Shown: positions 10,565 through 32,639 of the stretch, one piece after another
Layout of the letters: each line of letters opens with the position of its first letter
How positions within the stretch are numbered: position 1 is the stretch's first letter
DNA from: a virus
Lineage: Duplodnaviria > Caudoviricetes
DNA length: 64,000 nucleotides
IMG/VR virus record: IMGVR_UViG_3300032174_000005
Coordinates: 743-64,742 of that record
Reading direction: 5' to 3' (one strand)
Made by a program: the position numbers and the translations under genes
Notes under the pieces: model-generated
Told to the model about the DNA's origin: nothing
Seen by the model: the letters and a program-made list of their open reading frames with translations, nothing else
Databases searched by the model: none

Positions 10565-11535
10565 AGTTTCTACTCCCGCAGGGCATCGGCGACAGCGTGT
10601 GGGCGCTGCATAAAATCCAGGCAATCCGCGACAAGCTCGATCCCGGTGGCCCGATCGACATTCATCTCACCTGCTCCCGTCAGGATGATCTCCAATCCCG
10701 CGCGGTGGATTTCCTCCGCAGGTTCGATTTCGTCGATTCCGTGGAGATGCAACTTAACTACGGCATCCATCGTGAGTATGATGAGAAGCGTCCCCCGTTC
10801 ACCCCCGGCGGATATTGGGATTACCTCGAAGACGGGATGTATGATTTCAAGGGGGAGAAATTCTGCGTGCTGATCCCCAACGCGCCCCTCGAACGTGGGA
10901 TTCGCCTCGAAAACTGGCTCCCACAATACTCCATCAACTGGGACATCTTCTCCCACTTCCGCGTTTCCCCTGCGGAACTCGCCTACGGTCGCATGGTCCG
11001 CTCGAAACTCGGCCCGTTCGCGGTGTTCTACCCCGGCCCGCTGCACGGGAATACCATCGAAGGCCACAACCGCAACATGCTCTGGAAGCCTGCGGAGTGG
11101 ATCGACCTCGGGGAACAACTCCACGATAAATATGGCCTGAAAACCGTCGTCGTCGGCGCGGAATACGACCACGACTACTACACCCACATGCTCGCCCCCC
11201 GCATAAACGGTTCCGCCTCCCACTGGATTGACCTGATCGGTCGGACCAGCATCGGAGAACTCTTTGCGACCACCTCCCAGTCCTCCCTGCTCATCTCCTA
11301 TCAAGCTGGCGTGGGAATCATCTCCGCCTATCGCCACGTCCCGACCGCGATGTGGTGGCGTCCGCGCGGGGATTCTATCTCCACTCACGGATTCCTTTCC
11401 TTCGAGGAGGAGATGTCCACTGCGTGGGCACCCCCTGACATTTTGGAACAGGGCACATATCTCCCCTTAATCTACGGGAAACATGGTATAGAGTATATCC
11501 TTGAGGAAATTGTCAAGCGAGGATGGGTGAAATGA
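10561..11535 (+). CDS. GT-B glycosyltransferase (GT9/heptosyltransferase-like)
   Basis: PQGIGDSVW, WKPAEW, IDLIGRTSIGEL. Confidence 0.7.
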   Translation: MKFLLPQGIGDSVWALHKIQAIRDKLDPGGPIDIHLTCSRQDDLQSRAVDFLRRFDFVDSVEMQLNYGIHREYDEKRPPFTPGGYWDYLEDGMYDFKGEKFCVLIPNAPLERGIRLENWLPQYSINWDIFSHFRVSPAELAYGRMVRSKLGPFAVFYPGPLHGNTIEGHNRNMLWKPAEWIDLGEQLHDKYGLKTVVVGAEYDHDYYTHMLAPRINGSASHWIDLIGRTSIGELFATTSQSSLLISYQAGVGIISAYRHVPTAMWWRPRGDSISTHGFLSFEEEMSTAWAPPDILEQGTYLPLIYGKHGIEYILEEIVKRGWVK

Positions 11536-14500
11536 ATCTGCGACGGTTGCTGTGGCTGCTCCCTTTGTTTTTGCTGTCCGCGCTTCCGGCTCATGCCCAA
11601 TTCCCCAACGCTTACGGCTGGTGCGAGGCGGGCGCGCAGAATGTGATCACCTCCGGCCTGCAATCCACCACCCTCGTACAAGCGAGCTTCCCCCAATGCA
11701 CCGTCAGCGTGAGCATCCACGGCGGGGGCACCGCCACTATTTACTCTAACGACACAGGCACGCCGTTATCCAATCCCTTCACTGCCACCACGAATGGTCA
11801 GTGGCAGTTCTTCGCCGCTGTGGGGAATTACGATGTCACGCTTACCTGTTCCGGCGCGTGCGTTCCCCCGTCCCCATCCCCATTCCCTATTACTTTCAAT
11901 GAGATAAACGTGGGGATTGGCAGCGGAGGGGGTGGGGGCAGTCCACCTGTCAAGCCCGCCGTCGCTGATGGCATCCAATATGTCACCCTTGAGGGCCTTG
12001 ACACCAACGACGGCCTTAGCTGGGGCTCAGCGAAACTCACCTGGACAGGCGCGTGCGAAGCACTCCCCGGCGGTTCCGCCAGCCCTCCCACTTGCGGCGT
12101 GGGGGCGATTCACATCGCCAAGGAAATCCTCGCCAATCCCATATCCGGCGCCGGCATCTGGATGTTTGGCTCCGCCGACCCTGGCTATGCAGCGGGTGTA
12201 TCCGGATGGCACCGCTACGGCGGACCCATCAAAACAATCTGCGACGCGACCCTCGGCGGGGTGACCAACAACGGCTCAGGAACCTGTGTAATCGACGGCG
12301 GGTCCACCACAGACAACCTTCACCCAGCCATCTGGCTGAGCGCGATTAACGCGGGGGTGGAGTTCTACGGCGCGCAAGTTCAATTCCGCGCGGGTGTGAA
12401 CCTGATGCTGAGTGTGTGTTCCAACGGCACGAATAACGGCTCCTGCGCGGTGCAGAACGTGCGATTTGACCGCTTCCAGGCCACGGAGGGGGGATTATCC
12501 GCTGGACTCGGGCCTCCCGTGCTGATCGGCGACGGAACCTTCTGGGTATTCTTCAACGATTACAATATCTCGGGCAACGCGAATAACTCCCCCACCGCAG
12601 ACAACGGCGCGGCGGTGTTGATGACCAACAACACCACCCCCAGCGGATTGATCTCCTTCCACCAAGGCGGGTTCAACACGGGCGGGATTAAATACTACGC
12701 GGGGAATGAAGCCACCCTCCTGATCGACGGCGTGACCACTACGGAGAATAACCTAGAGGCTGTCCTGTGGGTAGCCAGCGGCAACCTCGGCGATGGAAAT
12801 GTAATTGTCCAGAACGCCGGGGTATCCGATTGCAACACCGTCGTGGCCCACTGCGCGATCGTCCGCAACGATGCCCTCGGCGCGGTGCATATCTCCAATA
12901 TCGCGGGCCCGACAATCGGTTATGTCATCGCGGACGCGGCGGAAAACTCCCGGCTGGTATTCCCCGACTCTCTCATTCACTACATCGGCGCGCTGACCTA
13001 TCCCACCAACGCAGGTTCTTCCGCGCCGATTATCGAAGTCTCCCGCACGCAGGGAAATAACCCCCAGAAAATGTTCGGTCCAGCCGTGGTTCCGGGGGCG
13101 AATCTCGTGGACATCGGCACGCACACCTGCGCCACCTGCACTGTGACCACCGGAATCACCGATCCCACCGTTATCGGCACGGGCGCGATTCAAATCACCG
13201 ATTCTGCATCCGTCGGAGCACTGTCCTTCACCCTTTCCAGCGCGGGCGGGGCGGTGACCAATGACACCTACGTTGCCAGCCTCTGGACGCGCTCGCCGAA
13301 CAATCTTGGATATAACCGCAGCGTGGCATTCCAGTTTCAGCTCACCGGCGGAAGCGACATCTGCAACGCCTCCACATCCGGATTCGTGCAGCCCAGCCCG
13401 TTATCCTCCACGGAATCCGGCTGGACGCATTACATCAGCCTTTGCAAAGTCACCACATTCGGCGGCACAACTCCCACATTCAACGTAACCACAGGCAGCG
13501 CCATCCCCATGCAGGTGTACGCGCCGATTGTGTTTGTGATGCATGGATATTCCGATGATGATGTGTTGAACACGGCCCTGAACATGGGCACATGGGATAT
13601 CAACTGCCCTACAGGTCAGCTTTGTGTGGAAAGTGGAATCCTCTCCGCGTTCGCGGGGTCCACGGCATTCTACGGCACGTTAACCCACGCGAACACCGCG
13701 AATCGCACCTACACCTTCCCCGACGCCACCGGAAATATCCCCGCATACACAGTATCCCCCACAAACCTCGATTGCGTGGACTGGTCTGGGGTGCTGGGGC
13801 TCCTCGGGGATGTTAGCGGAAAATGCGCCACCTACTCCATAACCCCGACCCCAGGGGACTGCGTAACATGGGCGGCAGGACCAAAACTCGGCGATTCCGG
13901 GTCCGCGTGCGGTGCTGGCGGCGGCGGCATGAACACCAACATGTCCAACATGGCCAATCCCACGCTGATGAATCAAACGCTGACTCCCGCCTCCGCGAAT
14001 ACCATCGCCGTGGGCACCGCGGCGCTCCCCTTCACCAATTTCTTCTTCGGCACGGTGGCGAATCAGACGATCTCCGGTAACACCGCGAACCTCACCGCAA
14101 ATCGCGTGGTGAACTGGCCGGATGCAACGTCCTCCCCCGTGCGGAACTGCCCCGCCGTCGCGAATCAATTCATCTCAGCCATCGCCGTAGCCACCGGCAT
14201 CTGCACGCAGGCGAATATCTCCGCCTCCTCCACCATGCCCTTCGCCTACGCGGCTGACACAGGTGCGGCGAACGCAGCGGTCGTCACCCTATCCCCCGCG
14301 CTGACATCTTACACAACCGGATTGGAGGTGGATTTCCTGCCCACCGCCGCAAACACACTCACCAATCCCACGGTGAATGTGAATGGCCTCGGCGCAATCA
14401 CCATCACGAAATACGGCACGGCAGCGCTTCAGGCGAACGACCTCCTCACCACCGCCATCGCGAAGGTGATCTATGACGGGACGAATTTCCAGCTCCAGAA

Positions 14501-32019: not shown

Positions 32020-32042
32020 TAGGAAACGATAAAGGAGAGACG

Positions 32043-32639
32043 ATGAGACGACTGCTGGCCCTGCCCCTGCTGTTACTGTTCAGCCTTCCTGTGTTTGCCC
32101 AATCCCATTCCGCGAGCCTGTCATGGACCCTCAGCACCTCCACGGCGGTGGTGAGCCAGAATGTGTATCGGAGTTCCGATGCGGGGGTGACATTTACGAA
32201 ACTCGCTGCGGGGACGGGCCTCGCGGCAACAATCACCACCTTCACCGATTCCACAGCGGCTGCGGGTGCGACATACCAGTATTACGTCACGGCTGTGTGC
32301 CCGACAACTGGGGCCTGCACGGGGGAATCCATCCCATCCAATAAAGTGACAGCGGTGATCCCTGGGAACACTCCGCCGCCCCCAACCGGTCTTTCCATCA
32401 CCAACATCGCGATCAACAACGTGAACGGGCAGGATCGCTTGCAGGTGGATTGGACCGCGCCCGCAAACTCCGCTACCGCATTCACCATCTTCGGCGGGCA
32501 GGGGCAGGTGCTGAAGCAGGGTAGCCAGACCACCGCGAATGGCGTGTACTCGTATGCGATTCTCATCCCCGTGCAGAACGGTGTCGTGACTATCTGTGAT
32601 TCCAAGGGATGCACGAGCCAGAACTTTCAGGGGATTTAA
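32043..32639 (+). CDS. Fibronectin type III protein with signal peptide
   Basis: ...LPVFA-Q; LSWT, NVYRS, FTD..GATYQYYVTAV, ESIPSN. Confidence 0.8.
   Translation: MRRLLALPLLLLFSLPVFAQSHSASLSWTLSTSTAVVSQNVYRSSDAGVTFTKLAAGTGLAATITTFTDSTAAAGATYQYYVTAVCPTTGACTGESIPSNKVTAVIPGNTPPPPTGLSITNIAINNVNGQDRLQVDWTAPANSATAFTIFGGQGQVLKQGSQTTANGVYSYAILIPVQNGVVTICDSKGCTSQNFQGI

Follow-up and report, generated by a model that had tools for sequence, protein, structure and literature searches.

Predicted Sec leaders and paired cysteines on receptor-slot proteins of a short-tailed soil phage tentatively suggest particle assembly in two compartments

It is assumed that tailed phages finish their particles while still in the reducing cytoplasm of the host cell. 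This study deals with six open reading frames (ORFs) of a phage genome that begin with predicted leaders for the general secretory (Sec) pathway and were originally predicted to encode tail or fibre proteins. The DNA analysed (the window) is a stretch of 64,000 nucleotides, bases 743-64742 of the 64,742-bp virus record IMGVR_UViG_3300032174_000005, which has direct terminal repeats and is rated 100% complete; the phage is a complete 64.7-kb short-tailed soil phage. Its nearest named relatives, Tunturi_1 and Tunturi_2, are 63-kb podoviruses isolated on the acidobacterium Tunturiibacter psychrotolerans, and the host of the window phage is therefore very probably also an acidobacterium (Acidobacteriota). 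These cultured relatives carry homologous genes (PP887698, PP885685; PMC11924767), and the same kind of leaders is found in Tunturi_1. Full-text literature searches, covering titles and the beginnings of abstracts, revealed no published description of tail fibres or spikes bearing leaders.

Several described systems share single features with these proteins. The MAT fibres of Bdellovibrio bacteriovorus are outlined as trimeric fibres resembling phage tail fibres, with a signal peptide, a beta-rich domain, conserved and ~130 amino acids (aa) long, and diverse tips, some of them with disulfides (Caulton et al. 2024, PMC10769870). As far as that outline goes, phage-type fibres can be made via the Sec route; however, the MAT fibres are cellular proteins that a predatory bacterium places on its own surface, with no virus particle to join (PMC10769870). 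The WceF protein of Pantoea stewartii is summarized as an exported beta-helix glycanase encoded in a polysaccharide-biosynthesis cluster and kin to phage depolymerases; it has a twin-arginine translocation (Tat) signal and a P22-like head domain, forms a trimer and is believed to have come to the bacterium from a phage (PMC7949094). Phage-encoded Sec substrates named in the abstracts and excerpts covered include secreted endolysins of the fOg44 type and Lom, and spanins are another known kind. For Porphyromonas gingivalis phages, the part of the report covered describes five unknown genes whose predicted cleavage exposes Gln (the 'Q-rule') and which are read as host outer-membrane modifiers (PMC10367356). 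None of these Sec substrates is a protein of a fibre or spike slot with a particle-binding domain.

The six leader proteins of the window, called A to F here, are as follows.

Protein A: 11532 to 15137, plus strand, 1201 aa; leader at 11532-11597, predicted beta-sandwich at about 11598-11894 with an invariant Cys pair, Pro/Gly linker and long variable body; 30 Cys.
Protein B: 15121 to 16710, plus strand, 529 aa; leader and predicted right-handed beta-helix glycanase; 12 Cys.
Protein C: 23916 to 24998, plus strand, 360 aa; leader, mature N-terminus QSNI, then a stretch rich in Gly and repeats of fibre-like type; 10 Cys; its gene opens the variable slot located downstream of the nozzle gene.
Protein D: 24983 to 25753, plus strand, 256 aa; leader; four mature Cys including CSQC; no family match.
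Protein E: 25753 to 27339, plus strand, 528 aa; leader; 16 Cys in the mature part; most closely related to hypothetical proteins of bacteria.
Protein F: 32043 to 32639, plus strand, 198 aa; leader and Fn3-like domain; four Cys; between a nuclease gene and the lysis region.

The original prediction had described basic-hydrophobic leaders ending in small residues, and all six ORFs translate accordingly, with basic, Leu-rich leaders of the AxA type. Cleavage is predicted after MNLRRLLWLLPLFLLSALPAHA and before Gln in A, whose longest ORF starts 9 nt earlier (11523) with the leader still included, and at ASPAGA-T in B, AGALWG-Q in C, AVPSEA-Q in D and LPVFA-Q in F. The site in E is ambiguous: VVPAHG-Q was predicted, whereas the heuristic used here favours VPA-H. 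The residues at -3 to -1 are thus AHA, AGA, LWG, SEA, AHG (or VPA) and VFA. At least one Arg or Lys is found within the first 2-7 residues of each protein, and the mean hydropathy of the hydrophobic region was 2.1-3.3 in five of the six by the heuristic, that of F being clear by eye. Ribosome-binding motifs of the AGGAG or GAGG type lie upstream of the leader ATG in B, C, D and F, and the start of E overlaps the stop codon of D. Downstream starts were also checked: there is no ATG between any leader and its mature part, and the nearest in-frame ATGs lie inside the leader of C or at residue 51 or later. The heuristic was positive for 6 of the 53 ORFs of at least 120 aa in the window, namely five of the six and an ORF at 36329 on the minus strand; protein F was missed by the gene caller and stands outside this count. 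The background was ~2% overall, with 1/53 for reversed decoys, 17/1060 for shuffled decoys and 7/290 for ORFs of unrelated phage loci, and Tunturi_3, another phage of the same host strain as Tunturi_1, gave 0/40.

Conservation of the leaders in homologues was confirmed for the family of protein A. In seven related phages, the first ~100 mature residues of A are 42-62% identical to the window copy and the downstream parts are unrelated; the leader is kept in all seven (48.7% identity for the leader versus 63.9% for the domain). A profile search with the mature domain among 1.84 billion representative sequences gave 5289 matches at E<=1e-3 and 2134 at E<=1e-10, with lengths of 159-2038 aa. Among the best 150 of the 5289, most have the domain starting near residue 18-34, and the heuristic recognised a signal peptide in 133; the other 17 are mostly visibly truncated at the N-terminus or missed by the heuristic, with about seven of the 150 being truly leaderless. 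When 127 sequences were anchored on the first Cys of the domain, Arg or Lys appeared at -28 to -25 and a Leu core at -24 to -14 (mean hydropathy 2.2-3.1), with Pro at -13 in 54, Ala at -10 in 74 and Ala at -8 in 89. These results support the reading of the leaders as conserved canonical Sec-type signals for signal peptidase I, with translocation and cleavage predicted.

That the leaders are something else, such as artefacts of wrong starts, uncleaved membrane anchors or hydrophobic helices with another role, seems very improbable. It counts against our interpretation that the calls were made with an in-house heuristic and by conservation rather than with SignalP or another dedicated predictor; in addition, the cleavage site of E is ambiguous and GTG or TTG codons occur inside some leaders. 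Nevertheless, ribosome-binding motifs stand ahead of the leader ATGs, downstream starts would cut into conserved mature sequence, and the n-h-c architecture with Pro and AxA is kept in the 127 anchored sequences as well as in the cellular homologues of B. The positive-inside rule sets the orientation of an N-terminal anchor, and an uncleaved anchor of the same polarity would still put the body of the protein in the periplasm.

Gln occupies the predicted +1 position in five of the six ORFs, as had been claimed, the exception being B with Thr. The proposed link of +1 Gln to pyroglutamate formation held only in part: Gln predominates at this position in the window, but the link is documented for Bacteroidetes only; the Q-rule paper limits the rule to this group in its abstract and nowhere mentions Acidobacteria. 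The window phage does not fit a Bacteroidetes host, as its relatives infect an acidobacterium and strong Shine-Dalgarno motifs are present in the window. In the wider families, Gln was found at +1 in 19/131 members for A, 12/100 for B and 38/80 for C, and in four of the five leader proteins of Tunturi_1.

After removal of the leader, proteins A to F contain 30, 12, 10, 4, 16 and 4 Cys, respectively, all even numbers. The closely spaced pairs claimed for all six are present as described in A (CSGAC), D (CSQC), E (CPSSGGC and CTASPGGC) and F (CPTTGAC), and B has CPHC; in C, however, the pairs are 9-12 residues apart. For the leader proteins of the window and 11 related loci (n=37), the Cys count was even in 30, odd in 5 and zero in 2, compared with 63 even and 58 odd among the other ORFs of at least 150 aa from the same loci, which were taken from a greedy ORF caller and may include non-genes. 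The bias was significant (binomial p 1.1e-5; Fisher p 3.4e-4), as was the higher Cys density of the leader proteins (p 1.7e-6), but these p-values overstate the independence of the data, since the counts include related sequences, which weakens the argument. Among leader-bearing database homologues, the ratio of even to odd counts was 114/17 for A, 97/3 for B and 77/2 for C; the variable bodies differ between family members, and some odd counts will come from fragments. Up to 42 Cys were found in a single leader protein. These patterns fit, and support, complete disulfide pairing in an oxidising compartment. Taken together with the conserved Sec-type leaders, they uphold the proposed export and periplasmic disulfide bonding as a prediction from sequence, and we are highly confident that the leader proteins are exported and disulfide-bonded.

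The two features also appear to go together within the A family. The Cys pair of the domain is kept in all leader-bearing members (129 of 131 by regular expression, the other two by eye). In contrast, the pair is missing from all eight leaderless distant homologues that were aligned; these begin exactly after the first 12 residues, so that the first Cys is gone with them. Of the approximately seven close members that are truly leaderless, three are without at least the first Cys of the pair. The second half of the A domain is 29-47% identical to the extreme N-terminus of leaderless proteins encoded on viral contigs of mostly 31-43 kb; 14 such proteins that were checked contain 0-12 Cys. Downstream of this N-terminus, five of eight tested have PHROG matches to tail spike, tail fibre, pectin-lyase or SGNH-esterase families.

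It is conceivable that A and the others are virion fibres assembled in the cytoplasm, the precursors escaping or outrunning Sec and docking with the leader attached or trimmed, the Cys oxidising after release, and the exported fraction being a side activity. This route would keep to textbook assembly, Sec capacity may become limiting late in infection, and leaderless close members of the A family do exist (~7/150 representatives). Still, we regard it as improbable: the canonical cleavage motif is conserved over thousands of clusters, which would be pointless if export were avoided, the strictly even Cys counts, which reach 42 in a single protein, point to oxidative folding under catalysis, and in leaderless forms the Cys pair goes missing along with the leader.

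The tailspike-type attachment domain that had been proposed to follow the leader of A was supported in so far as its leaderless form heads tailspike and fibre proteins and its predicted fold matches tailspike and depolymerase models. The AlphaFold model of the A domain is a seven-stranded sandwich (predicted local distance difference test score, pLDDT, 83.2; 37-row alignment). Against predicted viral structures, it gave 15 matches at E<=1e-3, with template-modelling (TM) scores of 0.44-0.63 on the query, among them 'Pectate lyase superfamily protein', 'Tail spike protein' (Pantoea phage Vid5) and 'Putative EPS-depolymerase'. The nearest ESM clusters of A are all tailspike or tail-fibre families (0.84-0.77), which is taken as a lead only. 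A second structural aligner placed a cyanopodophage Pan3 tail-complex chain at the top (Z 8.1, root-mean-square deviation 2.5 over 78 residues) and a Pam1 tail-complex chain at Z 7.3, the protein identity of the cyanophage chains not being stated by the tool. Known tailspike head-binding domains reached only Z 6.2-6.9 (P22 1lkt_A 6.7; Sf6 6.5-6.9), and Z values of 7-8 are common to many unrelated transthyretin/CnaB sandwiches in the same alignment list. Moreover, a Foldseek search of the PDB with the domain model gave no match at E<=1e-3. On these scores, the match to solved tailspike head-binding domains is only middling, which speaks against the assignment. A resembles P22 gp9N, Sf6 gp14N and the cyanopodophage tail-complex chains in having a small conserved N-terminal beta-sandwich before an exchangeable body, whereas leader and disulfide are both absent from the P22 and Sf6 domains, which fold in the cytoplasm. 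No PDB chain is similar to the A domain in sequence: searches of the PDB sequences with A, with B and with the A-domain profile all gave no match.

A conserved N-domain with the rest swapped usually marks a protein that docks to a part of the phage which is itself conserved. For A as a whole, the explanation that accounts best for the data, and which we hold with modest confidence, is that it is the phage's own fibre or spike protein, with a leader, a disulfide-stapled beta-sandwich that binds the particle and an exchangeable body; judged from its sequence, the prospect that A is attached to the virion is even or slightly better. The same explanation, with the same modest confidence, is given for the C-type proteins. 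Protein C is 64% identical to Tunturi_1 gp13 over 66 aa, and its module of ~95 aa is common to 117 proteins including gp13, 80 of which have a leader.

Protein B appears to have a different origin. Its full-length homologues (57-74% identity) have a leader in all 13 inspected and lie on contigs of up to 1.1 Mb. From 209 relatives, 80 metagenome loci were kept, 14 with long flanks were chosen and 11 were scanned by Pfam. Nine of the 11 are polysaccharide-biosynthesis clusters, with a priming transferase, GT2 glycosyltransferases, a Wzx-type flippase, epimerases, a deacetylase and methyltransferases; one homologue stands beside a GT2 gene among metabolic genes and one among signalling genes, and no recognisable phage genes were found around B homologues in these 11 loci. 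Only 6 of the 80 loci match any other window protein, two of them repeating the order of an A-like C-terminus followed by a B-like protein, and a contig scan of genomes with B gave only one distant match, from Flavobacteriaceae. The source names of B homologues, Candidatus Acidoferrum and Candidatus Sulfotelmatobacter, fit an acidobacterial host. The model of B is a right-handed beta-helix (pLDDT 88.1; predicted TM score 0.88) that matches GH136 lacto-N-biosidases (E 3.4e-8 to 2.7e-5), a rhamnogalacturonan lyase (E 1e-4) and PL6 and pectate lyases (E 1e-3 to 1e-2). Because of this cellular context and these fold matches, B is predicted from sequence and model to be a glycanase of a host exopolysaccharide cluster that was captured with its native leader. 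As with WceF, the cellular homologues sit in polysaccharide-biosynthesis clusters, as far as that protein is summarized (PMC7949094); B differs in its Sec-type leader, in the absence of a head domain, in a best fit to the monomeric GH136 and lyase folds and in having apparently moved from host to phage. Reading B as a tailspike was rejected on the same cellular context and fold matches.

Protein E is probably also a host-derived, glycan-cutting enzyme. Its nearest ESM Atlas clusters (0.92) belong to Acidobacteriota and Nitrospirota, taxa that fit an acidobacterial host, and there is a weak PD40/oligogalacturonate-lyase lead. In the metagenome locus L096 (4275-8099), one of the six that match another window protein, a 1274-aa ORF has a single leader followed by a beta-helix like that of B and a domain like that of E, beside two more leader proteins, which suggests a functional link between B and E. 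Five of the six proteins had no match in Pfam, PHROGs or NCBIfam; F alone had one sub-threshold Fn3-type match, to the N-terminal part of PelI in NCBIfam (E 2e-5, far below the family cutoff). Of two relatives of F, at L010:20428-20955 and L003:22634-23602, one runs into collagen-like GPX repeats and the other has a lipoprotein-like leader ending in LVAC-G. The original grouping of all six as tail or fibre-type proteins thus stands for A, with its tailspike-type domain, and for the fibre-like C, but not for B, a predicted host glycanase, for E, with bacterial nearest clusters, for D, which has no assignment, or for the Fn3-like F.

The remaining recognised features of the window place the leader genes relative to the particle genes.

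814-1962: major capsid protein of podovirus type (match to NCBIfam capsid_maj_Podo at E 5e-12, which is below cutoff; major head protein according to PHROG).
3214-4209: 331-aa head-proximal 'tail protein'.
4273-11535, plus strand: sugar-modification block, with a TPR/GT9-like protein, a cupin, a nucleoside diphosphate (NDP)-hexose C-methyltransferase type (PF08484 and PF08421), four S-adenosylmethionine (SAM) methyltransferases and a conserved 324-aa protein.
17680-19053, plus strand: tail adaptor of SU10 type without leader (PF24175 SU10_adaptor, E 8.9e-11).
19050-23180, plus strand: conserved 1376-aa nozzle-like tail protein without leader.
23475-23909, plus strand: conserved 144-aa tail-module protein without leader, 46-65% identical in relatives, directly upstream of the second variable slot.
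27726-31036: Cys-free low-complexity proteins, read as putative ejection proteins from composition and position.
33117-34648, plus strand: probable lysis region, with a holin-like membrane protein (33117-33602; hydrophobic segments), two small proteins and a Tlde1-domain protein.
34235-34648, plus strand: the Tlde1-domain protein (PF10908 Tlde1_dom, E 3.8e-15).
58435-60690: large terminase.
61438-63525: portal of P22/SU10 type.

A family-A DNA polymerase and a helicase were recognised on the minus strand. The tail adaptor is 48-60% identical in relatives and 26% identical to Tunturi_1 gp30; as a cytoplasmic particle part, it is a candidate docking site. Ten related viral contigs of ~60-66 kb have a nozzle-like protein at 50-59% identity over its C-terminal 820 aa, the N-terminal and middle parts being more variable. 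In the nine relatives that were mapped, two to four large, Cys-rich leader ORFs each, mutually unrelated, lie in both slots flanking the adaptor-nozzle pair; the conserved genes, which are those for head, adaptor, nozzle, acetyltransferase, ejection proteins and nuclease, lack leaders. Apart from the leader proteins, the nozzle-like protein is the sole other large protein of the tail module.

Leaders of this kind are also seen on fibre- or spike-slot proteins of the cultured phages Tunturi_1 and Tunturi_4. Compared with Tunturi_1, identity is 31% for the major capsid protein, 26% for the adaptor, 37% for the gp11 'tail protein' and 40% for the N-domain of protein A; the 144-aa protein corresponds to Tunturi_1 gp33, annotated as 'tail fiber protein', by position only. 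Tunturi_1 gp12 (A-type), gp13 (C-type), gp14, gp16 and gp17 have leaders at their annotated starts and contain 20, 10, 20, 1 and 32 mature Cys, respectively, and the 'tail spike' label of gp14 comes from structure-based annotation (supplement, Demina et al., Microbiome 2025, PMC11924767). Unlike in the window, the leader proteins of Tunturi_1 form one block between the head and lysis genes, and the slot after the nozzle is empty. The terms 'signal peptide' and 'SignalP' do not occur in the main text and one supplement file of the Tunturi paper, so the leaders on its fibres appear to be undescribed there, and 'mass spectrometry' does not occur in its main text (PMC11924767). In the unrelated siphovirus Tunturi_4, leaders are found on gp113 ('tail protein') and gp114 ('virion structural protein'), but not on the tape measure and core tail proteins. 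Tunturi_4 gp111 ('tail fiber protein'; L061:30076-33171) is annotated from a GTG, and its open frame runs upstream to a TTG and a leader nearly identical to that of gp113; gp111 therefore probably carries a leader, the deposited start lying too far downstream. The annotated fibres in the first 50 kb of Tunturi_3 have no leader and 0-7 Cys, so that export is not required to infect this host, a point against our reading, and the idea that all acidobacterial phages use such leaders was rejected on these grounds. On present sequences, the leader feature is widespread but not obligatory.

Whether these proteins reach the particle has to be weighed against a second use of export. All six may be non-structural exported proteins, made late, that cut or mask the exopolysaccharide and receptors of the infected cell and thereby free the progeny, stop re-adsorption to debris and block superinfection; receptor binding would then fall to the 1376-aa nozzle-like protein, and the N-domain of A would bind a conserved envelope component instead of the tail. 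This alternative is taken seriously, although we consider it unlikely. Several observations favour it and weigh against attachment to the particle. B is a predicted captured host enzyme without an added anchor domain; its best structural matches are cellular glycanases, with the HK620 tailspike only at E 9e-3, and with cellular homologues for B, part of the set need not be structural. The nearest clusters of E are bacterial. Among 32 leader proteins from relatives, seven have Pfam matches, to extracellular carbohydrate or adhesion modules (Beta_helix, CHB_HEX_C, TIG, Ig-like), and five have a PHROG match. The variable middle of the nozzle-like protein makes it an alternative receptor-binding candidate, no topological problem would need to be solved, and to our knowledge no tailed phage assembles by means of exported fibres. 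On the other hand, homology links the N-domain of A to the N-termini of tailspike and fibre proteins of other phages that bear no leader, the domain also matches viral tailspike and depolymerase models, it is conserved (42-62%; 40% to Tunturi_1 gp12) while the rest is swapped, and its homologues were found on phage-sized contigs only, all 22 from a word-indexed search lying on contigs of at most 66.8 kb. It would also be costly to spend ~9 kb, or 14% of the genome, in classical receptor-binding slots on accessory proteins.

The reading that we somewhat prefer combines exported precursors, periplasmic oxidative folding and captured glycanases. The head, portal, adaptor, nozzle and ejection proteins would be ordinary cytoplasmic proteins, whereas the hypervariable genes of the two receptor-binding slots, upstream of the adaptor and downstream of the nozzle, would encode precursors with Sec leaders cleavable by signal peptidase I. 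The precursors would be carried in unfolded form into the periplasm, where the leader would be removed and folding would put every Cys into a disulfide. Because of the export signals and paired cysteines on proteins encoded at the expected fibre positions, it is very probable that the leader proteins of the receptor slots fold elsewhere than in the cytoplasm, where the remainder of the particle is built. Fibre-less particles built in the cytoplasm would meet the oxidised fibres once holin lesions or lysis merge the compartments, and the A- and C-type fibres would dock through their N-terminal domains; attachment to particles at or after lysis is an even prospect in our judgement. Such a late step has a parallel in P22, the tailspikes of which are added late to otherwise complete particles, also in vitro. 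Before lysis, the exported proteins may act on the envelope glycans of the infected cell, with B and E as soluble enzymes on the cell's own exopolysaccharide.

As a whole, we tentatively propose that a clade of acidobacterial podophages including Tunturi_1 and Tunturi_2, together with Tunturi_4 and thousands of relatives in soil metagenomes, may assemble in two compartments: Sec-exported fibres and spikes would dock at lysis, the waiting fibres would destroy receptors and exopolysaccharide, and host glycanases would have been recruited leader included.

Several further observations were made in the window. The sugar-modification block lies between the head genes and protein A, and its 324-aa protein stands directly upstream of A and, in six relatives, is likewise found upstream of the A homologue; the block may serve to modify glycans of the host surface or to make a glycan for the exported fibres. 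Directly after F, a 155-aa protein (32640-33107, plus strand) has a His-rich N-terminus, a Pro run and no family match. Upstream of F, a 328-aa protein (31033-32019, plus strand) is conserved in all relatives and has one N-terminal and three clustered C-terminal Cys, a pattern that presumably recalls iron-sulfur PD-(D/E)XK nucleases such as Cas4; its counterpart by position is Tunturi_1 gp38, annotated as an exonuclease. The Tlde1-domain protein, which is L,D-transpeptidase-like, matches a PHROG without assigned function at E 1e-41 and may be an endolysin of unusual type; among the window genes, neither a classical lysozyme nor a classical amidase was recognised. In a 916-aa protein (36787-39537, minus strand), a domain of the uracil-DNA-glycosylase superfamily (residues 53-192) is combined with a family-A DNA polymerase domain. 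On the minus strand, there are two genes for tRNAs with anticodon CTA (amber suppressor; tRNA-Pyl according to ARAGORN), at 34733-34807 and 34869-34943, and a tRNA-Lys(CTT) gene at 41947-42020. Of 81 ORFs, 17 terminate with TAG; the capsid and nozzle genes are among these, and read-through would lengthen their products by 19 and 52 residues. Amber recoding was dropped as an explanation, since TAG read-through adds only short tails and none of the six leader ORFs ends in TAG, and no sign of genome-wide recoding was seen in the window ORFs.

Annotation pipelines leave leader-bearing fibres as 'hypothetical' or choose downstream starts, as seems to be so for Tunturi_4 gp111. With Tunturi_1, Tunturi_2 and Tunturi_4 and their hosts in culture, the question is directly testable; if the proposal is true, such fibres would misfold when expressed in the cytoplasm. 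Exported, disulfide-bonded host-recognition proteins would then add a new last step to the pathway of particle assembly and would explain very stable, Cys-rich appendages of soil phages. Infected cells would gain a built-in receptor-destroying activity, and host periplasmic glycanases would have a direct route to become phage depolymerases.

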